Virus record (IMG/VR): IMGVR_UViG_3300037504_000748
Coordinates: 1-59,722 of that record
Source: a virus
Taxonomy: Duplodnaviria > Caudoviricetes
Reading direction: 5' to 3' (one strand)
Length of the DNA stretch: 59,722 bases
Shown: positions 1 to 59,722 of the stretch, one piece after another
Layout of the letters: each line of letters opens with the position of its first letter
Numbering within the stretch: position 1 is the first letter of the stretch
Program-made: the position numbers and the translations under genes
The notes under the pieces: generated by a model
Told to the model about the DNA's origin: nothing
What the model saw: the letters and a program-made list of their open reading frames with translations, nothing else
The model's database searches: none

Positions 1-127
1 CATCTTGAGCCGCCTCGCAGTCCAGTATCCGTTCAACTTGCCGATGGTGCTGCGTGTGATAAACCAGGACCATATACTGACGGAGAAAAGACGATGAGAA
101 CGGACATCGCGTTGTTGGGCGGATGCC
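1..127. repeat. Terminal direct repeat, left copy (identical to 59596-59722)
   Basis: Exact 127-nt duplication of the window end. The ORF at 59426 continues across the junction. The length is typical of an assembler k-mer overlap, so the genome is circular and complete. Confidence 0.95.
105..120 (-). repeat. Truncated attC-like half site
   Basis: Minus strand reads GCCCAAC-AACGC-GATG, matching the R''-spacer-L'' start of the full sites. The rest of the hairpin is missing. Confidence 0.5.
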
Positions 128-146
128 CAAAGAATAAGGAAACACA

Positions 147-398
147 ATGAAAGAGATCACAGTCACAATACAGGCATTCGACAAGGCTATCGAAGCCCTG
201 GCGTTCTACGCCAACCCCGAAAGCTACCACGCAATTTCAATCTTCGGGGATCGCCCGTGCGGGGAATTTGCCGACGATATGGACGAAAACCACGGTTTTG
301 ACCTATATGATAGGCCCATGCCGGGAAGCCGCGCAAGAGAAGCGTTGCGCGCAATGGGAATCAAAGTGGGCGGAACAGCAGAGGACGATGACACCTAG
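147..398 (+). CDS. Hypothetical protein (attC-flanked cassette gene 1)
   Basis: 83 aa ORF with a GAGGA RBS, lying between attC-like sites. Confidence 0.8.
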   Translation: MKEITVTIQAFDKAIEALAFYANPESYHAISIFGDRPCGEFADDMDENHGFDLYDRPMPGSRAREALRAMGIKVGGTAEDDDT

Positions 399-402
399 CC
401 CA

Positions 403-460
403 CCCAAACCCACCAAGATCAGCGGCGCCGAAGGCGTCCGCCTGCATCGCCTTGTTGGGC
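403..460 (-). repeat. attC-like integron recombination site 1
   Basis: Minus strand: GCCCAAC-AAGGC-GATGCAGGCGG...CCGCTGATC-TTGGTGG-GTT, an imperfect palindrome with unpaired bases. Confidence 0.75.
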
Positions 461-478
461 GAGGAGGAGTAAGAAATC

Positions 479-727
479 ATGAGCATGAATGTCATCGACA
501 TCATTGCGGCAGTGCTGGCCGAGCACCAGGAGACACTGGGGGGCCATATCGCGCTCGCCGAAATCACCAGCGAACGTAAAGGACGCTCGCAGCCAAGCGA
601 TGTGCCTGGCGTTTCCACGGAATGGGTGGAGCAGTTCGGCGACGAGGCCGCCGGCGTGCCGTACCACGGAAACGTGTACATTGAACTGGCCCCAGGCCAG
701 TACGGGCGCTTTGAGTTTCAAACCTAG
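479..727 (+). CDS. Hypothetical protein (cassette gene 2)
   Basis: 82 aa ORF with a GGAGGAG RBS right after the attC-like site. Confidence 0.8.
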   Translation: MSMNVIDIIAAVLAEHQETLGGHIALAEITSERKGRSQPSDVPGVSTEWVEQFGDEAAGVPYHGNVYIELAPGQYGRFEFQT

Positions 728-731
728 CCCA

Positions 732-788
732 CCCAAACCCACCAAGATCAGCGGCGCCGTAGGCGTCCGCTGCATTGCCTTGTTGGGC
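732..788 (-). repeat. attC-like site 2
   Basis: Minus strand GCCCAACAAGGCAATGCAGCGGACGCCTACGGCGCCGCTGATCTTGGTGGGTT shows an R''-5nt-L''...L'-R' layout with two extrahelical bases. Confidence 0.8.
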
Positions 789-829
789 GGCGATGCAACG
801 CATTTACCAAGCCCATCGGAGAAAAACAC

Positions 830-1171
830 ATGGACCTCAGTATTGACATGGCCGCCGTGCAGGCGGCGGTGAACGAAACCATCACGAAGCAGGTCGCAAA
901 CGCCGCAGTGGGGTATGAGACACAGCAAGCCATCGCGGATGCAATCGGGGATGCGTTTGCCAGCGGAGCGGTCATGGATGCAGTCACCCAAGGGGTGCAG
1001 AGAGCCGACCTAGACGGCATCGCGGATGCCATCTCAAAAGAGATCACAAGGACGGCGGCCAAGATGGCCACTGTAGTCATGCGGGAAGCCATGGTTGATG
1101 CTGTGTGCAAACTCCGTAACATCTACACTGATGAGGCTAAGGCGCGGGTTGCCGCTGAGCTTTCACGCTAG
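830..1171 (+). CDS. Hypothetical protein (cassette gene 3), Ala-rich and probably helical
   Basis: 113 aa ORF with a GGAG RBS. Confidence 0.8.
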   Translation: MDLSIDMAAVQAAVNETITKQVANAAVGYETQQAIADAIGDAFASGAVMDAVTQGVQRADLDGIADAISKEITRTAAKMATVVMREAMVDAVCKLRNIYTDEAKARVAAELSR

Positions 1172-1174
1172 GCT

Positions 1175-1235
1175 GCCCAACCCCAAGCGGTCAGGCGCGC
1201 CGCGAAGCGGTCCGCCTGCAGCGCCGTTGTTCGGC
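1175..1235 (-). repeat. attC-like site 3
   Basis: + strand GCCCAAC...CAGGCG...CGCCTGCAG...GTTCGGC, the same palindromic architecture. Confidence 0.7.
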
Positions 1236-1252
1236 GGCAGATTGGAGATTAC

Positions 1253-1564
1253 ATGAGACGCTACAGGGACAATTACGCCAACCCGGTAGCCGACCAGTGG
1301 TATCGATCGCTCGATGTTCACAAACGTCTTTTTCTGAAAGAGACGTTTGTGGATGTATGTGGGCTATCCTGGGAGACTGCTGGGGTATGTCTCAATATGC
1401 GCGAACGCATTGCGATTTATCACACCAAACTCGTTGCGGAGGGCGTCATCCGGTCGCGTGGGCACGGGGCTCAGCTGCCTAACCCCACCGGGATCATCGA
1501 CGCGTTAGCGTCCGCTGCATTGCCTTGTTGGGCGGTGCTTACGGAAAGGGAAGATCATGGATAA
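1253..1564 (+). CDS. Hypothetical protein (cassette gene 4), reads through attC site 4
   Basis: 103 aa ORF with a GGAG RBS. Its C-terminus LPNPTGIIDALASAALPCWA is translated attC sequence. Confidence 0.7.
   Translation: MRRYRDNYANPVADQWYRSLDVHKRLFLKETFVDVCGLSWETAGVCLNMRERIAIYHTKLVAEGVIRSRGHGAQLPNPTGIIDALASAALPCWAVLTEREDHG
1477..1533 (-). repeat. attC-like site 4
   Basis: + strand GCCTAAC...GTCCGCTGCATTGCCTTGTTGGGC; the right half is identical to site 2. Confidence 0.7.
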
Positions 1565-1784
1565 TAAGTTACGCCAAAAGCTCAAAGAGATCGAAGAGGA
1601 GCTTACGCGACTAACGCATAATGGCGTGCCTACCTGGATGGATTCAGGCAGGCTGGACGTTGGCATACAAGCAATGATGATCGGCTTGGCTGTGAAGGAC
1701 TACGACAAACGGCACTCGGAGGGCATTACCGACGAGTCGCCAGAGTTCGGACCCGGCGGACCACGGGAAAACAGCGGGGCCTGA
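1557..1784 (+). CDS. Hypothetical protein (cassette gene 5)
   Basis: 75 aa ORF with an AGGGAAG RBS. Confidence 0.75.
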   Translation: MDNKLRQKLKEIEEELTRLTHNGVPTWMDSGRLDVGIQAMMIGLAVKDYDKRHSEGITDESPEFGPGGPRENSGA

Positions 1785-1787
1785 TCC

Positions 1788-1846
1788 GCCCAACCACCAA
1801 GATCAGCGGCGGCGGAGCCGTCCGCTCTGAATCGTCCTTGTTGGGC
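1788..1846 (-). repeat. attC-like site 5
   Basis: + strand GCCCAACCACCAAGATCAGCGGCGGCGGAGCCGTCCGCTCTGAATCGTCCTTGTTGGGC with perfect GCCCAAC/GTTGGGC ends. Confidence 0.8.
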
Positions 1847-1865
1847 GCATACGAGGGAGAAGCGA

Positions 1866-2165
1866 ATGCAACGCAGACATACACACACCATACGCGACGG
1901 GCGCGTGACCCGGTTCGCTGAGTCATTTACCGGCACCGGCCGCGACGCTTTCGGGCGAATCTACGAGGACGAGGCCGTCGGACCATATGAGGTCAGCGCA
2001 TCGCGCAGCGAGGTGAGGGTGCACTATGCTAGAATCGCACACCCGAATCGCCTGCCTGAGTTCGTTGCCGCGCTTGAGGCGGCATGGAATGAGCACGAGC
2101 ACTTACTTGCGTGCGACGGCAGGCCGAAGGACGGCGATAATGGCGAGCCGCGCGACTGCGGCTAA
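1866..2165 (+). CDS. Hypothetical protein (cassette gene 6)
   Basis: 99 aa ORF with a GGGAG RBS; the stop codon lies inside the next site's end box. Confidence 0.75.
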   Translation: MQRRHTHTIRDGRVTRFAESFTGTGRDAFGRIYEDEAVGPYEVSASRSEVRVHYARIAHPNRLPEFVAALEAAWNEHEHLLACDGRPKDGDNGEPRDCG

Positions 2166-2216
2166 TCCACAAGATCAGCGGCGCGGTAACGCGTCGACTG
2201 CAGCGCCTGGTTAGGC
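2160..2216 (-). repeat. attC-like site 6
   Basis: + strand GGCTAATCCACAAGATCAGCGGCGCG...CGCGTCGACTGCAGCGCCTGGTTAGGC; one end box is degenerate (AAT for AAC). Confidence 0.65.
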
Positions 2217-2238
2217 CCGGGCAGAGAGGATAAGAACA

Positions 2239-2625
2239 ATGCGTATCCCACCAAGTTACGAAGAAAGAACCATACTACTCGAGCACATCGCCAACGAGGT
2301 CATGGATCATGTGATGCCGGCGCGAAGGAGTGCCGGTGTTGAAGCGACCGACAATCACGCGCTTGTGCGCGCAATCGTGGACAAGACGTTGTGGGAACTA
2401 GAAGAACGCGAGGCAGAGAACCCGATCGACGTCTGCGGAGTACATAATGCGCGCATCGTAGACGAGTGCAGTAACGATGGAATAACACTTGATGAATGGG
2501 TGAAGGACATGGCGGACAAGCTCCGTAACTTTAGAGAAAAGGTGGAGTGTACTGACATGCCAAGCACTATGCTGCCCGGCGATTGGGATGAACAGTTCTT
2601 TGCTTTTCTCGGCTTACAAGAATAA
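2239..2625 (+). CDS. Hypothetical protein
   Basis: 128 aa ORF with a GAGGA RBS, following the last attC-like site. Confidence 0.8.
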   Translation: MRIPPSYEERTILLEHIANEVMDHVMPARRSAGVEATDNHALVRAIVDKTLWELEEREAENPIDVCGVHNARIVDECSNDGITLDEWVKDMADKLRNFREKVECTDMPSTMLPGDWDEQFFAFLGLQE

Positions 2626-2636
2626 AGGACAGCGAC

Positions 2637-3125
2637 ATGGAAACTAAGGATCAGATCATCACCCGTCTGGAGCGTGCTGCGTCGAACAACTGGGATTCGG
2701 CCAACGCTGCACAGGACAGCGCTGATCGGTACAGGCGAGAACGCGACGCGCTGCGTGAGGCCTTAGCGAGTATCTTGGACATGGCCGATCGACCGACCTG
2801 CGCCGAATTCACTGCTCATGCACTACGCATCGCTCGTGATGCACTCAATCCCAGTCGATCCAATGAAGAACCCGAGCGCACGACTGTATGGCAGGAGACG
2901 AAAAACAATTTACCAGCTATCGGAGCCCCGGTGATTCTGTGCAACCCAAATGAGTTCGAAAATTACCCGTTCGACGATCGCTCACGCTGCCGTCAGGAAG
3001 CAGCGTACTTCAACGTTATAGGAGGGGTCGGTTGCTGGAGTACCTTTGGAAGGCGCAGCGTCCCGCTCGTCAGCTTCCCATACTGGGCACACATGCCGAC
3101 GCTACCCGAATCGGACATCGAATAA
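2637..3125 (+). CDS. Hypothetical protein (N-terminal coiled coil; C-terminus resembles DUF551-type W...P.LP domains)
   Basis: 162 aa ORF with an AAGGA RBS, ending YWAHMPTLP. Confidence 0.7.
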   Translation: METKDQIITRLERAASNNWDSANAAQDSADRYRRERDALREALASILDMADRPTCAEFTAHALRIARDALNPSRSNEEPERTTVWQETKNNLPAIGAPVILCNPNEFENYPFDDRSRCRQEAAYFNVIGGVGCWSTFGRRSVPLVSFPYWAHMPTLPESDIE

Positions 3126-3201
3126 CCAGGAAAGGATCCTGCATGTCACAAACACAACCCCACTCAACCTCTGCGCCCGCGAAACGAAGGAGATCTGAAC
3201 A

Positions 3202-3363
3202 GTGAGTAAGGCACAAGAGGATCTGCGGGAGCGCCTGGAGAACGCAATCACCGCAGCAACGCAAGAGTGGGACCTCTGCGCATATGACATTGTTGGTGTG
3301 CTGTGTTGTTTATTATTCTGCTTCCAACACCAAATCGACTCTCTAGACGAAGGAGACAACTGA
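3202..3363 (+). CDS. Small hypothetical protein (53 aa, MSKAQEDLRERLEN...)
   Basis: Read manually: AAGGAG RBS, GTG start, stop overlaps the next ATG. Confidence 0.6.
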   Translation: MSKAQEDLRERLENAITAATQEWDLCAYDIVGVLCCLLFCFQHQIDSLDEGDN

Positions 3364-3554
3364 TGTCCAGGTTCTTCAACATCTGCTGCCTGAGGGCTGG
3401 GGTCGAACCTTCCCATAGGCAGTGGCGGAAATTCCTGAAGGGGCAAGGCTCCGCATATCATTACGCCATTCAGAGCGGCAATAAGAAACGGGCCCGCGAC
3501 GTGATCCGAGAGCACCGACCCGCAACGAAGCTTGAAACGAAACGGTTGATATGA
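3363..3554 (+). CDS. Small basic hypothetical protein
   Basis: AAGGAG RBS, TGATG coupling, begins MSRFFNICC. Confidence 0.65.
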   Translation: MSRFFNICCLRAGVEPSHRQWRKFLKGQGSAYHYAIQSGNKKRARDVIREHRPATKLETKRLI

Positions 3555-3718
3555 TCGCATCGGCCGACGACTACAACCTGCGTGTGCCACCGGTAGTCCG
3601 GCTCCCTGAGCCGTGCCTCTGCGGCGCCCCGGACTGCCCTGTGTGCTTCCCATACTCTTGGCGCGAGTCGCGGGCCGACGAGATAGGTAGCGACGATGAC
3701 GATGACGATGAATCGTAA
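3551..3718 (+). CDS. Small Cys-rich protein (CLCGAPDCPVC) with an acidic tail
   Basis: Read manually; ATGA overlap with the previous gene; 55 aa. Confidence 0.6.
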   Translation: MIASADDYNLRVPPVVRLPEPCLCGAPDCPVCFPYSWRESRADEIGSDDDDDDES

Positions 3719-3830
3719 GCGATTCGATCATCTGACGCTGGCATTGGCAGCTATCACGTGGCTGCTGGCACTGACTCTACTGGTCGTTGCCATCCAATGG
3801 CTATCAGGACCAGTAGGTCAACCGTTGTGA
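3708..3830 (+). CDS. Small single-pass membrane protein (40 aa)
   Basis: Read manually: MNRKRFDHLTLALAAITWLLALTLLVVAIQWLSGPVGQPL. Confidence 0.5.
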   Translation: MNRKRFDHLTLALAAITWLLALTLLVVAIQWLSGPVGQPL

Positions 3831-3919
3831 GCCCGGCTAGTCGGGCGTCAAATCTAGTTGTTGCCTTCTGCCGAGACGCGGGGATACTAGAGGTATCATC
3901 AATCATCATCAAGGAGACC

Positions 3920-4144
3920 ATGATGAGTGACCGCCCCTATCCACAACGCTCTGTCCAGACGTCATTGACGCTGGCCTTACGGGCTCGCGAGAGCCTGGTC
4001 AAAGCGCTCAATGATGTCCGTCATCTGGACAACGTTGCAGCGACTCAGCCTGCTATCGATTGCGCAGAGGTGGCCATGTCGGCCCTACTGCGGCAGTTGA
4101 TCGAAGTGATCGAGGACCGAACCGATCACCCGCGTCGCAGGTGA
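3920..4144 (+). CDS. Hypothetical early protein
   Basis: AAGGAG RBS before ATG 3920; promoter-like sequence at about 3861-3888. Confidence 0.7.
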   Translation: MMSDRPYPQRSVQTSLTLALRARESLVKALNDVRHLDNVAATQPAIDCAEVAMSALLRQLIEVIEDRTDHPRRR

Positions 4145-4211
4145 CTGATCTGAGGAAGGGGCGGCCCATGAGCTGCCCCTTCCTCCGAGCGCCGATCCGA
4201 GCGATTGGTTG

Positions 4212-4259
4212 TTGCCCTCCTCCCTAGTCGCCCTATCATATAGGCATAAGGAGAACAAC
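4212..4259 (+). promoter_or_regulatory. Repeated sigma70-type promoter plus leader (TTGCCC-16-TATCAT...GGCATAAGGAG)
   Basis: -35/-10 boxes followed by a conserved leader and RBS that recur before the neighbouring genes. Confidence 0.75.
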
Positions 4260-4472
4260 ATGACCGCTCAGAACTACACCGCGATCGCGGCCGACGGCAG
4301 CTGCATCACAGGCACTGCCCGGGACTGTAAGGAAGCCTGCTGCGCCATTCGCCGCAGCGCATCTGCTCTTGGCAAAGACATCGTCTGGGCTTTCGTCGGA
4401 AACGCCTACTGCCAATACACCCCCGCTGAAATCGCCGAGATTGCAGGGGTGGAAGATTCCCGCGAGTTCTGA
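4260..4472 (+). CDS. Hypothetical early protein
   Basis: TAAGGAG RBS and its own promoter. Confidence 0.75.
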   Translation: MTAQNYTAIAADGSCITGTARDCKEACCAIRRSASALGKDIVWAFVGNAYCQYTPAEIAEIAGVEDSREF

Positions 4473-4520
4473 TTCGCAACGGCCAGAGGGGGCGGCCTAT
4501 GAGCTGCCCCCGATTGGTTG

Positions 4521-4569
4521 TTGCCATGGTCTCTGCCGTGCCCTATACTATAGACATAAGGAGAACAAG
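4521..4569 (+). promoter_or_regulatory. Repeated promoter plus leader (TTGCCA-17-TATACT...GACATAAGGAG)
   Basis: Consensus-like boxes and the shared leader. Confidence 0.75.
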
Positions 4570-4812
4570 ATGAGTCAGAACAGCAGCCGGCCCAGCGACA
4601 CCTTCCTCAAGGCCTTCGCCATTGCCCGCATGATCCACCCCAACACGGTTGTCAAAGGCGATGAGCGCGGTTACACCCTTTGCGTCGGACGTCGAGCCGA
4701 CAACGACATGCGTCTGGAAGATGCGATGCAACGCGCGCTGGGTGTCGCCTCCTGGAAGATCGGCGTTTGCGCCGATTGCGTCGGTCCCGAAGTCAAGATC
4801 GTCAACATCTGA
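4570..4812 (+). CDS. Hypothetical early protein
   Basis: TAAGGAG RBS and its own promoter. Confidence 0.75.
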   Translation: MSQNSSRPSDTFLKAFAIARMIHPNTVVKGDERGYTLCVGRRADNDMRLEDAMQRALGVASWKIGVCADCVGPEVKIVNI

Positions 4813-4824
4813 AAAACAAAGGGG

Positions 4825-4872
4825 TTGCCCTCCCCCGCAGCCGCCCTATCATATAGGCATAAGGAGAACAAC
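4825..4872 (+). promoter_or_regulatory. Repeated promoter plus leader (TTGCCC-16-TATCAT...GGCATAAGGAG)
   Basis: Nearly identical to 4212-4259. Confidence 0.75.
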
Positions 4873-5064
4873 ATGACCCCTTCAATTCTCGACTTCGCCC
4901 TCGACCTGGCCATCGACGCCATGAACGACTACGACCTGGAAGCCAGCTCTGAATCAGGCATGCAGAGTGTGTTGGACCACGTGGTGGACCAGATCGAGGA
5001 AAACGGCTTGGACCCCGATGAGCTGAATCTCGATGAGTTGAAGGCGCATATTCGCAAGCTGTAA
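4873..5064 (+). CDS. Small, highly acidic early protein
   Basis: TAAGGAG RBS; D/E-rich, 63 aa. Confidence 0.75.
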   Translation: MTPSILDFALDLAIDAMNDYDLEASSESGMQSVLDHVVDQIEENGLDPDELNLDELKAHIRKL

Positions 5065-5107
5065 CCCCGCCAGGCAGGGCTGGCCGGCCCTGCCTGCCAG
5101 AAAGGCG

Positions 5108-5156
5108 TTGCCTGGCTGCCTGCTCTGTAGTATACTGTAGACATAAGGAGAAAGAC
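5108..5156 (+). promoter_or_regulatory. Repeated promoter plus leader (TTGCCT-17-TATACT...GACATAAGGAG)
   Basis: Consensus-like boxes and the shared leader. Confidence 0.75.
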
Positions 5157-5351
5157 ATGAGAGCCACCGTCCACCACGCCCTCCCCTCAGGCCGGACCTC
5201 GAAAACCATCATTGAGGCCGATGCGGCTACCATTTTGAGCCACGTCCAGACCGCCGCCAACAAGGCTGCCCGCGAGGTCGTGACCGTGTGGTTCGACGGA
5301 AAGGCTTTCAAGGGCCTGCCCTCCAACATCCGTGTTGACATCGAGAATTGA
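5157..5351 (+). CDS. Hypothetical early protein
   Basis: 64 aa, TAAGGAG RBS. Confidence 0.75.
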   Translation: MRATVHHALPSGRTSKTIIEADAATILSHVQTAANKAAREVVTVWFDGKAFKGLPSNIRVDIEN

Positions 5352-5383
5352 ACAGGTACAATTCAGGCATAAGGAGAACGAAC
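5335..5383 (+). promoter_or_regulatory. Repeated promoter plus leader (TTGACA-16-TACAAT...GGCATAAGGAG)
   Basis: Near-consensus sigma70 boxes. Confidence 0.75.
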
Positions 5384-5587
5384 ATGCCCAACGCCACCGA
5401 CATCATGACCGCTCTGAAGCATCTGAACGACATGGCTGCGGAGCAGGACCCATTAGGTCCCTCTCACGATCTGGCTGCGAGCCTTTTACAGGAGTTCCAG
5501 AGCTATTGCAGAATCCATAAGCTGGGGCCTGCAGATGAGGTCGAGCTCAATCCAACGCTGTTTGCCGATAAGGGACCGTCGTCCTGA
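5384..5587 (+). CDS. Hypothetical early protein
   Basis: TAAGGAG RBS, begins MPNATD. Confidence 0.75.
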   Translation: MPNATDIMTALKHLNDMAAEQDPLGPSHDLAASLLQEFQSYCRIHKLGPADEVELNPTLFADKGPSS

Positions 5588-5604
5588 GCACCAGCAAATA
5601 GGGG

Positions 5605-5652
5605 TTGCCCTCCCGAACAGCCCTCTTATATTGGGGGCATAAGGAGCACACA
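5605..5652 (+). promoter_or_regulatory. Repeated promoter plus leader (TTGCCC-16-TATATT...GGCATAAGGAG)
   Basis: Same motif family. Confidence 0.7.
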
Positions 5653-5778
5653 ATGACTAACATCGTCGCTTGGGAAGTCACCGTGAACGGCAAGACAAGC
5701 TCTCACGCATCTATCCAACTCGCAATGGACCACATGCGAGTCAATGGCACTGGAACCATGAAGGCAGTCTGGGGTTGA
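5653..5778 (+). CDS. Small early protein (41 aa, MTNIVAWEVTVNGK...)
   Basis: Read manually; TAAGGAG RBS and its own promoter. Confidence 0.7.
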   Translation: MTNIVAWEVTVNGKTSSHASIQLAMDHMRVNGTGTMKAVWG

Positions 5779-5822
5779 CCCTCACACTACACTCCAGACA
5801 ATACAGACATAAGGAGCCAACC
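5775..5822 (+). promoter_or_regulatory. Repeated promoter plus leader (TTGACC-16-GACAAT...GACATAAGGAG)
   Basis: Same motif family. Confidence 0.65.
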
Positions 5823-5975
5823 ATGCGTTTTGAAATCGGAGCCCGACTCACCGTCAACGGCCGCAAAGGCGAGATCATCAACTTCGCCGACACCTGGGAA
5901 TTCGTGGTCGAATGGGACGATGGCGAAGTCACCGTCATCACCGATGAGGAGCCCGGCCTGCTGATCGATTGCTAG
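5823..5975 (+). CDS. Small early protein (SH3-like beta pattern)
   Basis: TAAGGAG RBS; MRFEIGARLTVNGRKGEI...VVEWDDGE. Confidence 0.7.
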   Translation: MRFEIGARLTVNGRKGEIINFADTWEFVVEWDDGEVTVITDEEPGLLIDC

Positions 5976-6004
5976 TTGACTCGGCTTGCCCCGGCCTGTA
6001 TAAT
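5976..6004 (+). promoter_or_regulatory. sigma70-type promoter TTGACT-17-TATAAT
   Basis: Near-perfect consensus. Confidence 0.8.
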
Positions 6005-6085
6005 AGGGGCATGCACAGCCAAGCATTCAAAAGGCTCCACGGCAACCCCGCCGGCTCAACCATCCTTCAGAAAGAGGAGAGCATC

Positions 6086-6379
6086 ATGACCAAGATCGTC
6101 AAACCTACCACCGAGCGCAAGCTCGTCACCCTCACCGACGCCCAGAAGGGCACAGCCAAGCTCTGGTCAACCGTTTACAAGGGCAGCTCCAAAGGCAAGA
6201 TCTTCGACGCATCCTTGCCGAAGAAGTTCACCCTGCAAGACGTCCTCGAAGCCGTCCCGTCGCTGAAGCCGTTCAATGCGCGTCGATTGCTTCGGACCCT
6301 GCAACAAGACGGTTTGCTTTTCGTGGTCGATATCCTGGATCACAACACGTACGTGTACTCGTGGAATCCGACCCTGTGA
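6086..6379 (+). CDS. Putative winged-helix DNA-binding protein
   Basis: GAGGAG RBS; C-terminal FTLQDV...ARRLLRTLQQDGLL...YVY pattern. Confidence 0.5.
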   Translation: MTKIVKPTTERKLVTLTDAQKGTAKLWSTVYKGSSKGKIFDASLPKKFTLQDVLEAVPSLKPFNARRLLRTLQQDGLLFVVDILDHNTYVYSWNPTL

Positions 6380-6451
6380 AATTTTTGCGATTTACATCAC
6401 CAGTGATAGTTTGCAGAGATAACTTACACTGGTGAACTAGATCGCAAAATT
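6380..6451. repeat. Long imperfect AT-rich inverted repeat
   Basis: AATTTTTGCGAT..TCACCAGTG / CACTGGTGA..ATCGCAAAATT. Confidence 0.75.
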
Positions 6452-6560
6452 AAAAATTGGCGCTTGCCACAGTTTTGGAACCCGTTATACTCAAGCTTTC
6501 GATCATTCGATCATTCAAAAGGGCGGCCAGCCCTCAACCCTCCGAGAAAGGAGACCAACC

Positions 6561-7049
6561 ATGGCCAAGGAGTACAAGAGCTTCGCAATCGGCGTCAGCA
6601 AAGCCAACAAGCGCAAGCACGAGGCCCTCACCGGGCTCGCCGACAAACTCGGCTGCAAGCCCAGCAATCTCGTCTGGCTCGCCATCGACAACCTGCTGCA
6701 GAACCCGCCTACCACCGCCCCTGCCGGCGCTGCTCCGAGCGTGGGTACCGCCAGCGGCTTCTGGGTCCGCCCCGTGATGGAAGATGGTCGCGCCGTCGAT
6801 GTCGAGATCGTCGAAGTCGCCAATCGCAGTGACGCCGAAGGCCGCACTTTCCTGCGCTACAAGAGCGGCGATGCCAAGCTGCGCAACCGCGCCCTCAACC
6901 AGGCCAAGCGCGCCGCGGCCTTCGACTGCCAGATGCTGGGCATCGAGTTCGATGAAGACAACATCCTTCTGCTCGACATCCCCGAGGAGGACGCCGATAC
7001 TGAGGACGCCGATACTGAGGGCGCCGATGCTGAGGACGCCGGCGAGTAA
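6561..7049 (+). CDS. Putative DNA-binding protein (ribbon-helix-helix-like N-terminus, acidic repeat tail)
   Basis: AAGGAG RBS; upstream TTGCCA...TATACT promoter at about 6464; tandem 15-nt repeats encode DADTE. Confidence 0.6.
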   Translation: MAKEYKSFAIGVSKANKRKHEALTGLADKLGCKPSNLVWLAIDNLLQNPPTTAPAGAAPSVGTASGFWVRPVMEDGRAVDVEIVEVANRSDAEGRTFLRYKSGDAKLRNRALNQAKRAAAFDCQMLGIEFDEDNILLLDIPEEDADTEDADTEGADAEDAGE

Positions 7050-7081
7050 GGTTTAGAGCCTACTGCCCCTCGACACAACAT

Positions 7082-7117
7082 AAGCCTACCCGTTTCAACG
7101 GGTAGGCTTTCTTTTTT
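7082..7117 (+). terminator. Rho-independent terminator
   Basis: AAGCCTACCCGT-loop-ACGGGTAGGCTT followed by a T-rich tract. Confidence 0.85.
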
Positions 7118-7154
7118 CATCGCCCACCACACGAACCTTATCAAGGAGGTCGTA

Positions 7155-7901
7155 ATGACCACAGCTCTCGTTGTCCTCAGCGGCGGACAGGATTCTACTA
7201 CTTGCCTCGCCTGGGCACTCGCCGAGTTCGACACAGTACACTGTATCTCATTCGACTATGGCCAACGCCACGCTATCGAGCTCGAAAGCGCTAAGCAAGT
7301 CGCTAAACTGGCAGGCGTCTCTGAAGAGCGCCATCACTTCATCAAGGTTACTGCTCTTGCCGAGATCGGTGGAGCTGCTATGCTTGCCGGTGTCGCTCCA
7401 AAGGAAGGCGAAACGGTTGGTTCAGAAACCAGTTCTGGTTTGCCCAACACCTTCCTGCCCGGCCGCAACCTGATCTTCCTGACGCTCGCTAGTGCGCTGG
7501 CATACAAGCTCGGGATCAGCGACCTTGTCACAGGTGTCTGCCAGACCGATTACTCAGGGTATCCTGATTGCCGTCTCGAAACCATACAGCAACTCGAGCA
7601 CGCAATTACCTTGGGCATGTCCTACGACATCAACATCCATACGCCTCTCATGGACCTTACCAAAGCTGAAAGCGTCGATCTAGCGATGGAGCTGGCCATA
7701 GCGTTCGGCTCTGATGTCCCTGTGCAACAAATGCTCGCACACAGCCACACCTGCTATAACGGCCTGTTCCCTCCCTGTGGTGCCTGCCCGGCTTGTGAGC
7801 TGCGGCTTATGGGCTTCAAGGAGGCGGGCGTAGTCGACCCTGTTCTCACGCGCGCGTTCACGGATAAGGGCGAAAACATCCCCGAGAAGTACAACATTTA
7901 A
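7155..7901 (+). CDS. queC: 7-cyano-7-deazaguanine synthase
   Basis: SGGQDS PP-loop, YGQRH, PGRN, GYPDC, and C-terminal TCY...CGACPAC zinc motif. Confidence 0.95.
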   Translation: MTTALVVLSGGQDSTTCLAWALAEFDTVHCISFDYGQRHAIELESAKQVAKLAGVSEERHHFIKVTALAEIGGAAMLAGVAPKEGETVGSETSSGLPNTFLPGRNLIFLTLASALAYKLGISDLVTGVCQTDYSGYPDCRLETIQQLEHAITLGMSYDINIHTPLMDLTKAESVDLAMELAIAFGSDVPVQQMLAHSHTCYNGLFPPCGACPACELRLMGFKEAGVVDPVLTRAFTDKGENIPEKYNI

Positions 7902-7905
7902 GGGG

Positions 7906-7933
7906 TTGCTTTTTCAGAGTCTGACCCTATAAT
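7906..7933 (+). promoter_or_regulatory. sigma70-type promoter TTGCTT-16-TATAAT
   Basis: Consensus-like boxes preceded by GGGG, as in the early promoter family. Confidence 0.65.
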
Positions 7934-8006
7934 TTAGACTCGGTAGGCGCGTTGCCTATTTCGCGTGTGCGGCGCGCCTGCCTTATTTCCTTCTCAATGA
8001 GGAACT

Positions 8007-8432: not shown

Positions 8433-9049
8433 AGGTCGTTCCCCAGTCCGCCACCCTGCTCCATATCACTGAAGACGCCAGCCGTCTCATTGAGCGAGCT
8501 GGTCGTGTATGCTATAAGTCGGAAGACAGAATTTGCGAGGGCTCTGACGAGCGGTTGATCAACGGGACTCTTTGCGCCCGTGGTCACCTGTCTGTGCTCG
8601 AGCATGCCACCGCCACTTTCCTTTTCGTGACCGACCGAGGCGTCTCTCATGAGCTGGTGCGTCATCGTATCGCCGCCTACAGTCAAGAAAGTACTAGATA
8701 CTGCAATTACGGCAAAGACAAATTCGGCCAGGAAATTACCGTCATCGAGCCTCCTTTCATGACCGAGAAAGGTGCAATGTTGTGGCAGGGTACGATAGAG
8801 GAGACCGAGTCGAGCTATCTTGCCATGCTCGAAGCTGGTGAGCCTCCTCAGATCGCCCGCAGTGCGCTGCCTACCTGCCTCAAAACCGAAATCGTAGCGA
8901 CCATGAATTTTCGCCAATGGTTGCACGTGATCGAACTTCGCACGTCGTCCGCTGCCCATCCTCAGATCCGCGAACTCATCGGCATGGCCGCTGATCAACT
9001 GGCTGCGTCCTGCCCGATTATCTTCGCCTCAGCCGAGCGTACCGACTAA
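8429..9049 (+). CDS. thyX: Flavin-dependent thymidylate synthase
   Basis: HLSVLEH, ELVRHRIAAYSQESTRY, AR..LP, NFRQW, AHPQIR motifs. Confidence 0.95.
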   Translation: MKVVPQSATLLHITEDASRLIERAGRVCYKSEDRICEGSDERLINGTLCARGHLSVLEHATATFLFVTDRGVSHELVRHRIAAYSQESTRYCNYGKDKFGQEITVIEPPFMTEKGAMLWQGTIEETESSYLAMLEAGEPPQIARSALPTCLKTEIVATMNFRQWLHVIELRTSSAAHPQIRELIGMAADQLAASCPIIFASAERTD

Positions 9050-9405
9050 TGAACATCGATAAGTTTGAACACCTATTCGACCAAGCTATAAGAAACCCGC
9101 TGCTGCATCAGCCATGGCCGTCACGCTCGGGTTGGTATCTTTTCATGAGTGACGGCACGTGGCACATGGTGTATTTCTATGCACGGAAAGGCGTCAGGCG
9201 CCCGCGTGGAACCGCCCTGAAATCCCCCAAGCACTGGCGCAACGGCAAGTTCTGTCGCCTGCTCGGACCAGGTGTTCTGAGGGAGCTCGACAAGCTATGC
9301 ACAATCATACTGATAACTGACCGTTCAGCGTACGGTATTTGTCTCGCGATTGAGAGCGCCCTACACGAGAACCTTTCACCCAATAACCGTAACATGGACC
9401 GATAG
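9049..9405 (+). CDS. Hypothetical protein
   Basis: 118 aa ORF coupled to thyX (TAATG). Confidence 0.6.
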   Translation: MNIDKFEHLFDQAIRNPLLHQPWPSRSGWYLFMSDGTWHMVYFYARKGVRRPRGTALKSPKHWRNGKFCRLLGPGVLRELDKLCTIILITDRSAYGICLAIESALHENLSPNNRNMDR

Positions 9406-9412
9406 GAGTATC

Positions 9413-9814
9413 ATGGCTGACATCACACAAGATCCCGATCGTATCAAGCGTGACTTCCTCAGGGAACTGGAGGAGAAGGTCGCTGTCGCCTACGAGTTCA
9501 AACAATTCATGGTCATGGTGCGCACTAACGTCTTTGTGCCTCTGCATCTGCTAACACCTGTCGGCGCCCGGTGCATGGCGGTCGCCCGTGCTCTCGAGTT
9601 TATCGACACCGTCGTCGAAAAGGATCAGGGCGAAGACGTAGAGTTGATCATCCTCACCGTGCTGGGTAAATCTGTCATGAACTCTGTCGGCGATATGTGG
9701 CAAATGGACATCGTCGACGAGCTAAATGCCGGCGGTGATATCGACATGATCGCACATGGCCAGGAAGGCTATGACGAATACGGCAATCAACTTCCGATAA
9801 AGGATACACCATGA
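9413..9814 (+). CDS. Hypothetical protein
   Basis: AGGAG RBS before ATG 9413. Confidence 0.7.
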   Translation: MADITQDPDRIKRDFLRELEEKVAVAYEFKQFMVMVRTNVFVPLHLLTPVGARCMAVARALEFIDTVVEKDQGEDVELIILTVLGKSVMNSVGDMWQMDIVDELNAGGDIDMIAHGQEGYDEYGNQLPIKDTP

Positions 9815-10023
9815 ACAAGCCTCATGAACAAGCGATTTTCCTATTGCAAGAACGTATCAAGCGACTGCAATCCGGGATTGGTCGGGCGAAAGCCCTCGGG
9901 CGTATTCCGTACAAGACGGACAAGTCTATCAGTCTCGGTGAATACATTTGCCTGTGCCAGGAAAATATCCAGGAGGTGCTCGACAGCATCAAGGCTCTGA
10001 AAAAGGCCCAACGAGATGGATGA
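9811..10023 (+). CDS. Hypothetical protein
   Basis: 70 aa, ATGA coupling. Confidence 0.65.
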   Translation: MNKPHEQAIFLLQERIKRLQSGIGRAKALGRIPYKTDKSISLGEYICLCQENIQEVLDSIKALKKAQRDG

Positions 10024-10318
10024 TTGTAGCATTGGATGTCACGTTGACTGCCCAGATGGAGAGATGTTCCTACGAATGCTACGTCTCGGCGAGGACACGG
10101 CTGATCATCAGGAGCAAAAACTACTGGACGAGCAGCTCGCTGAGTCCGCGGGTTACATCGAGATCGCTGACGACGAAGAAGACCACTCGTGCGGTCTCAA
10201 CACGGACGAAGAAGAAGAGCCGCATAACACTCTCCTCGACGAGAACGGCATGAGTGAGGTGGGCTGGGCCGACCTTTGGATTCAAAGATTTGAAGATGAT
10301 GAGGTGGATGATGGATGA
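10016..10318 (+). CDS. Highly acidic hypothetical protein
   Basis: 100 aa, D/E-rich, overlaps its neighbours in operon fashion. Confidence 0.6.
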   Translation: MDDCSIGCHVDCPDGEMFLRMLRLGEDTADHQEQKLLDEQLAESAGYIEIADDEEDHSCGLNTDEEEEPHNTLLDENGMSEVGWADLWIQRFEDDEVDDG

Positions 10319-11351
10319 TTCGCTACTACCACTCACCAAGTTCGATATTGGCAAACCACTCAAAGCGTCGAACGATGTGCTACCTCTCAACCACCCCGAC
10401 ATCCCTTACCCAAGAGGGATGGTCAGCTCGCCGAAAATCGACGGCAATCGTGGCATGGCGATATGCGGTCGACTTCTATCATCGTCTGGCAAGGAACCTC
10501 GCAATGAACGGTTCCACCGACGGTTTGCTGCGCTTCGCGGGTTCGTAGCTAAATACGATATCATGCTGGACTACGAGGTGTACGCTCCGTCTCTAGCGCA
10601 TCACGCCGAGCTGTCAGGAGTGCTCAACTCGTATGATCAACCGTTGCCCGATGATTTGGCTCTCTACGTGTTCGATGGGTGCTTTCGAAACCAGTACTTG
10701 AACCAGTGCCAGGACACTCCTTTTCGGCAGCGCATTGATATGTACCACTCGTTCGTTGTGGCTCTGGACGACCCGTCCGTACGTGCCGTAACTCAGCGGC
10801 GAGTATGTGACGCGCAGCATGCCTCAGATTTGTTCAATCAAGACATTGCAAACGGGTTGGAAGGCTCGATGCTCAGAGCCCTTGATATCTGGGCAGGGCA
10901 ACGTGGGCCCTGTGGCGGATGGTATAAACACGGTCGAGCCACCAACAAACAGGGTATCATCTACAAGGCCAAGCTGTATGCGACCCATGACGGGCGCATT
11001 ACTGAGGTCGTTCAGAGGCGTGAGCTCAAGCCGGACTACCCACGTGAAAGAAACGAGTTTGGCGACTTGAAAGGCACCTACCCTAACGACGCATACACCC
11101 TGATCGAGGAAGCTGGTGCATTCCGCGTGGAATACGACGATCCTAAGACAGGTCAAACACAATCCTGTCTCTTAGGGTGGGGCAAAGGTTTTCCGCGCCT
11201 AGATCGCGTAGGATTTTGGCGAGAACGCGATAACTTGCTAGGTAAATGGGTGGAATTCAGTCATATGCCCCACGGGGCCGCGTCAGGGGGAAAGGCTCGC
11301 CATGGCCGCCTGATTCGATTCCGTGAAGATCTCGAAGGACAATCACAATGA
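10311..11351 (+). CDS. ATP-dependent DNA ligase
   Basis: KIDGNR (motif I), LYVFD, LEGSMLR, YKHGR, KAK, C-terminal OB domain. Confidence 0.9.
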   Translation: MDDSLLPLTKFDIGKPLKASNDVLPLNHPDIPYPRGMVSSPKIDGNRGMAICGRLLSSSGKEPRNERFHRRFAALRGFVAKYDIMLDYEVYAPSLAHHAELSGVLNSYDQPLPDDLALYVFDGCFRNQYLNQCQDTPFRQRIDMYHSFVVALDDPSVRAVTQRRVCDAQHASDLFNQDIANGLEGSMLRALDIWAGQRGPCGGWYKHGRATNKQGIIYKAKLYATHDGRITEVVQRRELKPDYPRERNEFGDLKGTYPNDAYTLIEEAGAFRVEYDDPKTGQTQSCLLGWGKGFPRLDRVGFWRERDNLLGKWVEFSHMPHGAASGGKARHGRLIRFREDLEGQSQ

Positions 11352-11572: not shown

Positions 11573-12111
11573 TGATACACATATATACGGATGGTAGCGC
11601 CTCGCGCATAGGTGTGACCTGCTACGGCGGGTGGGCCGCTCTGCTCATCGACGACGACGACAACGCACTGATGCTAGGACAAGGCGTCAGAGACACTACC
11701 AACAACCGAATGGAGCTGACAGCAATTGCTGAAGGACTCGAAGCGATGATCCGTTCAGAGCTCGTACGTGTGTTCTCTGACTCCCAGTACTGTGTTCGGT
11801 CCATCAACGAGTGGATCAACGGTTGGCGGAAGAGAGGCTGGGCAAAGGCTGACGGGGGTCGTGTCAAAAACATCGATCTGATGGAGCGTCTTTTCGAACA
11901 AAAAACACGCCTGACAGTCGACGCAAAGTGGATTAAAGGGCACAACGGCCACAGGTATAATGAGGCCGTCGACGAGTGGGCTGTTTTTATGCGCTATGCC
12001 GCGGGCGACGCGGGCGACACATTGGACACGGAGACGATCCGCGGTCCTCTGGATTATGTTCTCGGCGAGGTCGACTACCAAATTACGACGCATGAGATAC
12101 ACCGCGGTTAG
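11572..12111 (+). CDS. rnhA: Ribonuclease HI
   Basis: IYTDGS, TTNNRMELTA, SDSQY, W...GW, KN.DL, WIKGHNGH..NE..D. Confidence 0.95.
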   Translation: MIHIYTDGSASRIGVTCYGGWAALLIDDDDNALMLGQGVRDTTNNRMELTAIAEGLEAMIRSELVRVFSDSQYCVRSINEWINGWRKRGWAKADGGRVKNIDLMERLFEQKTRLTVDAKWIKGHNGHRYNEAVDEWAVFMRYAAGDAGDTLDTETIRGPLDYVLGEVDYQITTHEIHRG

Positions 12112-12113
12112 CT

Positions 12114-12257
12114 ATGAGATACTGCGTTGCATGTCTACTTGGTCTTGCTCTCTCAGGGTGCTACATGCGCCCCAGCAGTGAAACGGTGCTTGAGCAAGAG
12201 GCGTTTCAGCAGTCGTACCGCGCCGACCGGCCTTTTTACACTCTGTACGAGAGATAA
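12114..12257 (+). CDS. Small lipoprotein (47 aa)
   Basis: Read manually: MRYCVACLLGLALSGC|YMRPSSE... with an LSGC lipobox; fills the gap between rnhA and the next gene. Confidence 0.65.
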   Translation: MRYCVACLLGLALSGCYMRPSSETVLEQEAFQQSYRADRPFYTLYER

Positions 12258-12259
12258 CA

Positions 12260-12655
12260 ATGGGTGACCCCTCTTCGAACACAATCGACGCCGAGCAAGT
12301 CTTCAAAGAAATGAAACGACTGCAGGAGGCGGTGCAGCACTTCATAGACATGATCCACGGTCTAGCCAAAAACGACGACCACGCTCTGGATTTATACGAT
12401 GCGGTGCAGAAGATCAATGTCAGTGCTGCATTATTAGGTCAGGCGGCCGCAAATTGCACGCGACAGCCTGTTGAGAGCGATGCCATACTCGAAGCGCTGC
12501 TGGCATGGATGGCTCAACTATACAGGGTCATTGAACAACCAGTGCCAACCTACTCAGCGGCCGTAGTGTTATACAAGTTCCTGCGCTCTTCCAAGGAAGA
12601 CACAGAGCTGCTTGTGCGCCGCCTCACAGGTCAACCGTTGGATTCTTTTCAATGA
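12260..12655 (+). CDS. Hypothetical protein
   Basis: 131 aa ORF within the operon. Confidence 0.7.
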   Translation: MGDPSSNTIDAEQVFKEMKRLQEAVQHFIDMIHGLAKNDDHALDLYDAVQKINVSAALLGQAAANCTRQPVESDAILEALLAWMAQLYRVIEQPVPTYSAAVVLYKFLRSSKEDTELLVRRLTGQPLDSFQ

Positions 12656-14031
12656 CCGATCAACTGAAGCCGTATCAAGACACTCTTTCTAAACGGGTAC
12701 GCAGAGATCGTAGTCTGATCAGCTTACGGTATGGTGCCGGCAAGACATGGGTTGCTCTCATAGCGATACAACGGTTGATATCGACCCTGGGAGATCGCGA
12801 CTATGGATGTGCCGCGCTCTGGTTCACTAAAAACCGTCTTGCGGGCACAGCTGTTGACGAAATCCTCAAACGCAGTTCATACCTTCCGGAGAAATGGGAA
12901 GATATGGACGGACCTCCGCAACCTTATTCCATTGTTGTTATTCCGCATACATGGATCCGTACCCGCACCAAAGAAATCAAACAGCTTATCCTTCATCACA
13001 AACCCGCATGCGTGACTTTCGACGAGTCCACCAAAATCAAATCCCCGAGTACCAAGATAAGTACAGAGCTCCACAAACTTGCCGGAGTACATCAGACCGC
13101 GGTACCTAAGGGACTTCGTCTGTGTCTGACTGGCAACCCCTGTCCAGAAGGGCCGCACGAATTTTGGTCCCAATTCCAGTTCCTCTATACATATGGAAAT
13201 CCTCTTGGCAATACTTATTACCGCTTTCTCAAAAAGTGGTTTATCCAGCTCGACCATGATAGGGTTTTGAACGCGCTTACCAGGAAACGGTTCTGGGAGA
13301 CTGTCAAGAAGCATACGCTCTACATGAACAAGGCTGAGTGGGCAGAGTATAAGAGAGAGTATGGTCTCGAAAAGAATTATGTCACTCTCACCTATACCCC
13401 GTCCGCAGAGCAGATCAAGCTTATGAAGCAGTTGCAGAATGAGTGGTCGCTACCAACCGGGGATGGAGGTGACGAAGAATGGTACGACTACTCGTTGACA
13501 GTGGGTGCTAAGGCGCTACAAATATCCAACGGCTTTTACTATTCAGAAGAGAGGGAAGTTGTATATCTCAAATCATCCCCCAAGGCCGACCTTCTCTGCG
13601 GCACGCTGGAAGACTTGCTCAATGAGGCTTCTCGCCAAGTCATCGTGTGGTTTCATTACGACGCAGACCGCCGTATGCTCATCCAGAAGATGCAACGCTT
13701 TATCGAATACGGGATCGCTATCGGTCCATCAGAAGAGGAGCTTCATAGGTTCGAGCGCGGGGAAGCGCGTATCATTCTCATGCCGGTCACAGTTTCAGAG
13801 GGCTTCAACGAACTTGTTGTTGCAGACACACAGATCTTTTTCACCAACACCTACTCCCAAGAGATGCGCGATCAGGCCGAGCATAGAATCGATCGTCTAT
13901 CCCAGCAATCGCCAACGGTCACGTATATCGATCTCGTGGGCGAAGGGATGCGGGACGACGAAATGCGTATCGCCGTAGCAGCTAAAAACCCTGAACTGAT
14001 CGCGCACGCAGTGCGGTCAATACTACCCTAG
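12652..14031 (+). CDS. SNF2/SF2-type helicase
   Basis: YGAGKT, TFDES, LTGNP, EGFN, QAEHRIDR motifs. Confidence 0.85.
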   Translation: MTDQLKPYQDTLSKRVRRDRSLISLRYGAGKTWVALIAIQRLISTLGDRDYGCAALWFTKNRLAGTAVDEILKRSSYLPEKWEDMDGPPQPYSIVVIPHTWIRTRTKEIKQLILHHKPACVTFDESTKIKSPSTKISTELHKLAGVHQTAVPKGLRLCLTGNPCPEGPHEFWSQFQFLYTYGNPLGNTYYRFLKKWFIQLDHDRVLNALTRKRFWETVKKHTLYMNKAEWAEYKREYGLEKNYVTLTYTPSAEQIKLMKQLQNEWSLPTGDGGDEEWYDYSLTVGAKALQISNGFYYSEEREVVYLKSSPKADLLCGTLEDLLNEASRQVIVWFHYDADRRMLIQKMQRFIEYGIAIGPSEEELHRFERGEARIILMPVTVSEGFNELVVADTQIFFTNTYSQEMRDQAEHRIDRLSQQSPTVTYIDLVGEGMRDDEMRIAVAAKNPELIAHAVRSILP

Positions 14032-59692: not shown

Positions 59693-59722
59693 GAACGGAC
59701 ATCGCGTTGTTGGGCGGATGCC
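59596..59722. repeat. Terminal direct repeat, right copy
   Basis: Identical to 1-127. Confidence 0.95.

Follow-up and report, generated by a model that had tools for sequence, protein, structure and literature searches.

An integrase-free cluster of attC-type sites whose predicted recombinogenic strand is the coding strand in a siphovirus-like phage

Introduction

In integrons, the gene of a cassette lies on the top strand with its attC site behind it, and attC polarity decides the sense in which a cassette is inserted and, hence, its expression. The phage genome studied here (Duplodnaviria; Caudoviricetes; IMG/VR record IMGVR_UViG_3300037504_000748), whose whole length of 59,722 bases is rated complete and is called the window below, carries within bases 400–2219 six attC-type elements of 59–66 nt, which separate seven small open reading frames (ORFs) of the plus strand. 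The question raised by this locus is which strand of the sites is the recombinogenic, or bottom, strand, and how the genes are placed with respect to it. A preliminary description of the window had proposed that all genes between the sites run antisense to attC polarity, with the mRNA-like strand of the phage being the recombinogenic one, and that this might reflect either selection tied to replication direction or the addition of attC sites to phage genes in place of the capture of host cassettes.

Structure and Polarity of the Sites

According to the available passages of Nivina et al. (2016), the bottom strand of an attC site carries the R′ box 5′-RYYYAAC-3′ at its 5′ end and has its bulges near L″; a conserved T is placed furthest out and another base, usually G, inside L″, with six pairs between them, an optional middle bulge, and spacers of 5–6 nt. 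The plus strand of the window, which is the coding strand, reads 5′-RYYYAAC, spacer, L′, loop, bulged T, 6 bp, second bulge in L″, spacer, GTTRRRY-3′. The T is furthest from L″, the second bulge is 6 bp away in L″, and all unpaired bases lie in the arm beside GTTRRRY of the plus strand, which corresponds to the bottom strand of the published rule. The original argument was built on the second site (S2, 729–791), the minus strand of which indeed reads from GCCCAAC onward as previously given, and the minus-strand fold confirms that both unpaired bases (the G of ATGCAG and the A of GGACG) lie in the 5′ arm beside GCCCAAC. When both strands are folded, the complementary bulges C and T appear on the plus strand in the 3′ arm beside GTTGGGC. 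In addition, G·T wobbles favor folding of the plus, i.e., bottom, strand.

The placement of all cassette genes on the plus strand, as previously proposed, agrees with Shine-Dalgarno sites, a codon model, and the homologues of two ORFs. Three further tests, which concern the geometry of the integrase gene intI, the genes of bacterial arrays, and the crossover point in other phages, are described in the following sections; these and the bulges are independent and agree, and they support the assignment of the mRNA-like strand as the putative bottom strand, with the ORFs antisense to canonical attC polarity. Since the bottom-strand form is on the coding strand, the predicted unit between two crossover points is C-attC-RBS-ORF-stop-RYYYAA (RBS, ribosome-binding site), in which attC comes before its gene. 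In a canonical cassette array, the genes are on the top strand and each has its own attC behind it, whereas here the genes are found on the bottom-strand side and attC precedes the gene.

Site positions were obtained by alignment and with a covariance model, R1, built from the six window sites alone. The first site (S1, 400–463) has an R′ box that is off consensus (CCCAAAC), the R″ box GTTGGGC, and the bulges T, C, and C in the 3′ arm; its R1 score is 80.0 bits on the plus strand and at most 10.5 bits on the minus strand. S2 also has the R′ box CCCAAAC, followed by a T bulge, the 6-bp stem CCGCTG, and a C bulge, and scores 84.5 bits on the plus and 14.3 bits on the minus strand. The remaining sites, all in the same form on the plus strand, are S3 (1173–1238; GCCCAAC and GTTCGGC, with one R-box mismatch; 53.9 bits), S4 (1475–1536; GCCTAAC pairing with GTTGGGC via a T·G wobble, with two stem mismatches and a weak hairpin; 66.4 bits), S5 (1786–1849; 69.2 bits), and the last site of the array, S6 (2158–2219; GGCTAAT, having AAT for AAC, and GTTAGGC; 59.5 bits). 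The best-formed of them is S5, a textbook site (fold z of −2.95) that has on either strand an 8-bp R box (CGCCCAAC/GTTGGGCG), 6-nt unpaired spacers (CACCAA and GTCCTT), and a stem with a 3-nt loop, with the bulges T, CT, and A in the 3′ arm.

The GTC with the bulged T is kept in all six sites. In the 3′ arm of the plus strand, this T is unpaired four pairs from the loop in S1–S5, while the T of S6 can form a G·T wobble pair instead of bulging, and a second unpaired base follows six pairs further out. This second base is C or A in the window and G, C, or A among the bacterial and viral relatives. The stem between the two bulges is CCGCTG in S4 as well as in S2, and an extra middle bulge is present in S1, S3, and S5, so that the extrahelical bases are those of attC sites (T furthest out, a second base in L″ 6 bp away, and an optional middle one). 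The R′ box (RYYYAAC) is canonical in S3, S4, and S5 and the R″ box (GTTRRRY) in all sites except S3, and both the unpaired central spacer of 5–6 nt and the site length agree with the attC rule (57–141 bp). The sites sit between a stop codon and the following ribosome-binding site, with the ends of ORF4 and ORF6 overlapping S4 and S6.

With six co-oriented sites within 1.8 kb and no match to the profiles of the integron integrase (TIGR02249) or of tyrosine recombinases (PF00589) in the complete phage genome, the region has the composition of a CALIN, a cluster of attC sites lacking integron integrase in the definition available from Cury et al. (2016). A relic of a seventh site, consisting of its 3′ part only (the L″/R″ side, CATCGCGTTGTTGGGCG), matches the repeat family at 105–121 on the plus strand. 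It lies in the 127-nt direct terminal repeat of the genome (1–127 and 59596–59722) and, hence, has a second copy at 59700–59716. Pattern matches with one mismatch cover 111–121 and 59706–59716, and R1 gives no match at 105–121.

Orientation of the Site Type in Bacteria and Viruses

The pattern of the phage sites matched 108 bacterial genome stretches, and the 80 of these that were examined with R1 contained at least 119 matches in co-oriented arrays. Their hosts belong to Lysobacteraceae, Acidobacteriota, Holophagales, Burkholderiaceae, and Gemmataceae, and the largest arrays have up to 18 sites at E values of up to 0.05 (locus L138) and 21 minus-strand sites (L140). IntI scored over the NCBIfam curated cut-off in four of five array-bearing genomes, and intI adjoins the arrays in three genomes (G001, G002, and G004). 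By their match to these arrays, which speaks against a chance likeness, the six window sites are assigned to an attC type of high G+C content with a wide distribution among bacterial integrons. The phage array shares with the bacterial arrays of a Lysobacteraceae metagenome-assembled genome (MAG; G001) and a Holophagales MAG (G004) the consensus RCCYAAC...TCAGCGGCG...GTCCGCTG.A...GTTRGGC, the bulges, and a length of 59–80 nt, whereas the bacterial arrays differ in having an adjoining intI over the cut-off and genes opposite to the bottom-strand form, neither of which is found in the phage.

Two of the polarity tests come from these bacterial loci. The intI gene of G001 and that of contig C163 of G004 diverge from their arrays, and the strand carrying the phage form of the site points back at intI. 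The genes of the bacterial arrays, in turn, are on the strand opposite to the phage-form site: among the 184 flanks around 92 sites, 124 were called opposite and 15 same, with 45 having no call or a tie. Bacterial loci with a single hit gave 26 opposite, 3 same, and 5 ties (n = 34), and an earlier interval-based count gave 40 opposite, 5 same, and 11 unclear among 56 intervals. In one further genome (G002, Acidobacteriota; L140, 493–1383 and 3024–16629), intI runs in the direction of the cassette genes and is read toward the array.

Flanks were called with a gene caller based on codon log-odds, for which 449 ORFs of 350 aa or longer, taken from all loci retrieved, served as the training set. 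An identical pair of loci with two matches each (L025 and L098) was left out of the flank count, two loci (L048 and L070) were replaced by longer ones covering the same places (L140 and L138), and opposite-strand echoes of stronger matches as well as one partial match (L022, 363–394) were dropped. The codon model replaced an orientation heuristic based on the longest ORF per flank, which was too noisy in G+C-rich DNA (6 of 12 calls in the window were unclear). The G+C content of codon positions alone was also rejected as a strand test, being unable to tell a frame from its mirrored antisense frame.

Viral contigs present the reverse picture. A first pattern (GTCCGC...CCTTGTTGGGCG) gave 14 single matches, about the number estimated by hand for chance, and only two of these loci (L010 and L008) held R1 sites; a consensus pattern matched 47 viral stretches, 45 of which contained 67 sites by R1. 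Around 77 sites, including the earlier matches, 96 of 154 flanks were called same, 12 opposite, and 46 were uncalled. Loci sharing at least 500 bp at 75% or higher identity were grouped, which reduced 51 loci, the window among them, to 43 clusters, and of these 36 are mostly same, 3 mostly opposite, and 4 tied or uncalled. The viral and bacterial orientations differ at Fisher P = 4.7e-38 for flanks and 2e-11 for loci. The survey of attC and ORF orientation that had been suggested for phages and bacteria thus came out in line with the suggestion: it shows that the window array has, as judged from sequence, a polarity reverse to that of the bacterial arrays, and that this predicted reversal is what viral contigs with this attC type usually show. 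One of the three opposite clusters is an IMG/VR provirus, and another has a generic tyrosine recombinase.

The fold of the site type is well conserved among viruses. In 55 viral sites, 94% of cells are paired, and 14 of 20 pairs have compensatory changes, a number reached by none of 500 shuffles; at one R-box pair, 16 of the 55 sites show U·G, a wobble that would become a C·A mismatch on the other strand. Phage genes identified in the viral loci encode a terminase and a portal (L021), primase-helicases (L010 and L147), a helicase (L177), and a RecE-like exonuclease (L149). Between viral sites, and on the same strand as the bottom-strand form, 4 of 10 ORFs scanned scored over the Pfam cut-off, namely DUF1643 (5.8e-40), Mom (4.6e-42), N6_N4_Mtase (1.5e-44), and Lar (6.3e-10), and the N6/N4 DNA methylase has an Mrr-like domain. 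No IntI over the cut-off was found in 15 other viral records, 5 of which were searched with PF00589 and 10 with TIGR02249 (3 of the latter at least 94% complete). One viral contig (L146) encodes a reverse transcriptase (8948–10405; phrog_1423, 1.8e-110) approximately 1.2 kb upstream of a three-site array (11632–12866), which may be a group II intron; some group II introns are of a kind known to target attC sites.

Crossover Signatures and Natural Variants

The fourth polarity test concerns homology breakpoints in other phage contigs. Eight viral loci (L149, L155, L156, L161, L162, L164, L167, and L186) share one site and 120–800 nt downstream of it, at 98–100% identity in the 21 pairs without L149 and 75–95% in the 7 pairs with it, whereas no upstream similarity was found in any of the 28 pairs. 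When the eight loci are aligned, their identity sets in directly behind the AA of R′, at the 5′ end of the site as read on the coding strand, and the six preceding letters vary by locus; by its position, this start (AA|C) is assigned to the A|C cleavage point of the bottom strand. Another two loci (L145, 2022–2077, and L174, 2791–2846) have the same site and 383 nt downstream at 99.5% identity in two different upstream contexts, and L174 is without the R′ box, its junction AT|C being like that of integrase insertion at a secondary GWT site. The homology breaks at AA|C are indirect evidence that an integron integrase may recombine the bottom strand of sites of this type.

The window stretch is present in three tidal-flat metagenome runs, and no RNA run is listed among its carriers. 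One of the three (X2) contains two forms of the array. A 3,882-nt contig (depth 13.7) joins position 431 to 761, so that 329 nt with ORF2 (479–727) are missing, while a second contig of the same run carries ORF2 (depth 5.1). The two forms coexist in one run, and the variant shows a cassette-sized gain or loss bounded by sites. S1 and S2 are identical over 393–430, which makes the joint informative at one base only. In another run (X1), depth reaches 148–158 at 361–480, 1801–1920, and 2281–2400, compared with about 43 in the flanks, i.e., three to four times as much; this increase over the cores of S1 and S5 and part of ORF7 (2239–2625) points to like sequences in other genomes of the same tidal-flat sample. 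The X1 joints of 442 or 451 to 1175 have only 26 letters on one side and may stem from other genomes, and they were not used.

Relation to Known Integron Systems

CALINs in virulent phages are already known, 17 of them being described in the available passages of Qi, Rajabal, Ghaly, Tetu, and Gillings (2023; Front Microbiol, PMC9892861). The window array is like these in its attC sites without integrase, in the lytic type of phage, and in having accessory genes, such as those for DNA methyltransferases, between sites; according to the same passages, IntI1 recombined five of six tested phage sites, and the array of Tetrasphaera phage TJE1 has the typical bacterial structure. In TJE1, R1 matches at 241–295 and 1013–1077 on the minus strand, between plus-strand genes, with classical T and G bulges. 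Thus, the bottom strand is opposite to the genes in TJE1, whereas the window and 36 of the 43 viral clusters with this type of attC have it as the coding strand. The novelty, as far as the literature search reached, is this reversal of gene and attC: no statement on it for phages was found in the literature searched, and the passages of PMC9892861 covered by the search, i.e., the text apart from figures and supplements, are silent on polarity.

A reversal of another kind has been described by Richard et al. (2024; Sci Adv, PMC13108822), who report much more folding and recombination for bottom strands placed on the lagging-strand template, and a rise of excision from below 7e-5 to 3e-2 in the artificially inverted Vibrio cholerae superintegron. 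Both cases have a bottom-strand polarity flipped with respect to the natural bacterial state, but in V. cholerae the whole array, including its genes, was flipped with respect to replication, whereas the phage sites are flipped with respect to the genes. The AT|C junction of L174 resembles a third known process, integrase-mediated insertion outside att sites at 5′-GWT-3′ (attG), for which the available part of Loot et al. (bioRxiv 10.1101/2022.09.11.507474) gives no strand, replication, or transcription bias in Escherichia coli.

If the reversal is systematic, phage genes would constitute a separate cassette class, and orientation would act as a filter on the exchange of cassettes between phage and host. 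Cassette boundaries, and with them gene content, would then be mis-assigned in phage arrays by tools built on bacterial polarity. Phage arrays would also make it possible to test directly whether attC orientation is set by single-strand exposure or by expression. The presence of Mom, Lar, DNA methylase, and DUF1643 genes between sites of other phages suggests a route to anti-defense genes.

Probable Origin and Movement of the Array

We consider it probable that the region is a CALIN in the early-gene arm of the phage, with the bottom-strand form of its sites on the coding strand, and that it is moved by host integron integrase. The integrase would act on the sites during infection, and attC-first units would be transferred by it among phages. 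How sites and genes came together is indicated for one gene. ORF1 (147–398, plus strand, 83 aa; codon score +14.2) belongs to a conserved small phage protein family with the motifs YANPExYHA...RPMPG, which are invariant in an alignment with nine homologues of 57–88% identity. The family is encoded in 11 other viral contigs, and in none of these (0/11) is there an R1 site within 4 kb, so that the link with attC appears secondary for at least ORF1. This distribution gives partial support to the earlier idea that sites were joined to phage genes, as opposed to a wholesale capture of cassettes from bacteria, and does not settle why the polarity is reversed.

For that cause we can offer two guesses. 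The most likely one is that the coding strand is more often single-stranded, being the non-template strand in transcription and, if the genes run with the fork, the lagging-strand template, and the sites would be highly recombinogenic as a result. The other guess is that a cassette inserted into a phage operon with bacterial polarity may be silent or harmful and become lost. Because attG insertion has no such bias in E. coli, insertion bias alone would not explain the phage orientation, and selection after insertion appears a likelier cause than such a bias. Since recombination through the bottom strand would fix polarity, following the mechanism in the available passages of Nivina et al. (2016), a cassette crossing between a phage array and a bacterial integron would come to lie antisense to local transcription. 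A broader proposal, which we regard as tentative and rather doubtful, is that phages keep a mirror-image pool of attC-first cassettes with accessory and anti-restriction genes, moved by host integrases during infection in fast-turnover arrays, the phage and bacterial pools sharing a recombinase and being separate in expression, because a cassette passing from one to the other would be antisense and silent. The reversed polarity would then have the folding strand exposed by both transcription and lagging-strand synthesis of the phage.

A number of observations weigh against a CALIN moved by host integrase in reversed polarity. The phage itself encodes no integrase detectable by the profile search; the cleavage triplet departs from AAC in three of six sites (AAAC in S1 and S2, AAT in S6); and the fold of S4 is no better than that of shuffled sequences (z of −0.06). 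The crossover of the X2 variant is in 431–441, in the loop or 3′ arm and not at AA|C, as the contig keeps A431 of S1, and this joint, taken alone, looks more like homologous exchange or slippage between near-identical sites than like the action of integrase. The GC skew is negative over nearly the whole genome and has no V shape from which a replication direction could be read. TJE1 is both a control and a counter-example, by which the reversal is not universal in phages. The survey itself covers one attC type in pattern-seeded loci, with a home-made caller that left about 30% of flanks uncalled, and many viral matches are single sites, several of which share one near-identical site and thus represent lineages that are not fully independent. 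As to the genes, a minus-strand ORF in the mirrored frame (419..991), which runs through S1 and S2, reaches a total codon score of +23.7, and the search for homologues of the cassette proteins, as recommended previously, succeeded for ORF1 and ORF4 and, in the searches run, failed for the other four of the six array ORFs (ORF2, ORF3, ORF5, and ORF6).

The X2 joint inside 10 nt of 431–441, with the loop base of S1 kept, the lack of a clean AAC in S1, S2, and S6, the poor fold of S4, the half-site relic at 105–121, and the missing phage integrase would all be in keeping with a fossil array, i.e., one that entered once, by secondary-site insertion or by illegitimate recombination with a host integron, and whose sites are no longer used by integrase. 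Genes would now be gained and lost by homologous recombination or by slippage, to which folded attC sites are easily lost according to the available part of Loot et al. (bioRxiv 10.1101/2022.09.11.507474), and the orientation would tell which insertions survived in a densely transcribed operon. We consider this explanation unlikely, as six sites with differing loops and spacers have all retained the R boxes, the bulged T with the 6-bp spacing, and the lengths of the spacers, the compensatory changes in the 55 viral sites argue for continued selection on the shape recognized by integrase, and the homology of eight other phage loci breaks exactly at AA|C. Still less probable is an explanation by RNA elements, in which the hairpins are mRNA processing sites, stabilizers, or insulators between early genes, their likeness to attC is incidental, and their orientation is set by the RNA fold. 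In its favor, every site is part of the transcribed sense strand and is placed between a stop codon and the ribosome-binding site that follows; G·U wobbles render the hairpin of this strand more stable than that of the other; and the array, which is without a promoter-like site of its own, would be read through as one transcript. On the other hand, the sites share sequence and structure with a family that is found beside bacterial intI, where the mRNA carries the other strand, the breaks at AA|C point to DNA recombination, none of the six sites is terminator-like, and no Rfam family matches the window.

An error in the polarity call or in the gene strand would turn the region into an ordinary cassette array, and this option is largely refuted and has hardly any probability left. 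Apart from the four array ORFs lacking homologues, it could appeal to two minus-strand ORFs, one filling the ORF3 interval (748..1122) and the other being the high-scoring 419..991. The former has a codon score of −16.6, and the latter crosses two sites and scores 0.125 per codon as compared with 0.25 and 0.20 for the plus-strand ORFs it overlaps; neither has a PHROG match, whereas ORF1 and ORF4 on the plus strand have homologues and the four independent polarity tests agree. The integrase-moved CALIN with its bottom strand on the coding strand is the reading preferred here.

Genes of the Array and Genomic Context

The plus-strand ORFs start 12–45 nt past a site behind a Shine-Dalgarno sequence, end at or inside the next site, and fill the intervals. 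All eight of them have positive scores in the codon model (7.8 to 22.1), none exceeds a Pfam cut-off, and PHROG gave no match either for these eight or for the two minus-strand ORFs. No homologue was found for ORF2 (82 aa; +20.8), which is missing from the natural variant, or for ORF3 (830–1171, 113 aa; +22.1). ORF4 (1253–1564, 103 aa; +7.8) has 42 cluster representatives of 53–92 aa, two being longer, which match only residues ~5–72; it is taken as a real protein of ~72 aa, and its last ~30 codons, therefore, as read-through of S4. ORF4 is without a stop of its own, and its last ~30 residues (…LPNPTGIIDALASAALPCWAV…) are translated attC (1475–1564); in the viral locus L021, several ORFs have ends like that of ORF4 (…PNPQ…). 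ORF5 (1557–1784, 75 aa; +12.9) has Pfam matches only below the cut-off, and ORF6 (1866–2165, 99 aa; +11.1) has no homologue among phage records and a TAA stop inside the R′ box of S6. The first gene past the array is ORF7 (128 aa; +20.9), part of which (2257–2405) recurs in other contigs of the same metagenomes. Searches with tblastn of the array ORFs against bacterial arrays gave only weak matches, those of the mirrored minus-strand ORF to translated attC sites.

The plus strand of approximately the first 26 kb carries replication genes (ligase, helicase, primase-helicase, and DNA polymerase) and a QueC-like gene, and the minus strand carries structural genes (tape measure, minor tail protein, portal, and large terminase), with the portal being only ~32% identical to those of the nearest isolated phages. 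The phage is siphovirus-like, and the attC cluster is in its early-gene arm. Close relatives were sought in four ways: blastn of window positions 1–8000 against phage records matched the QueC gene only, a locus search using QueC found none, a tblastn comparison of every window ORF of 60 aa or more with 19 viral loci gave no match, and a metagenome pattern scan returned one unrelated contig (L189). Comparative breakpoints can, for this reason, not be mapped for the window's own cassettes. The GC skew on the plus strand is negative almost everywhere regardless of gene direction and positive only in the first 4 kb, which also have the highest G+C content (0.58 versus 0.535 overall).

A scan for promoter-like sites found none in the array region (1–3700) and 10 in total, all on the plus strand, compared with 2.9 expected. 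A second family of intergenic repeats is located at 4210–6491, immediately upstream of small plus-strand ORFs, and consists of TTGCCC or TTGCCA, 16–17 nt, and TATCAT or TATACT, followed by ..CATAAGGAGAACAACATG. Judging from their composition, these repeats look like repeated modules of an early promoter and a leader, one per gene.

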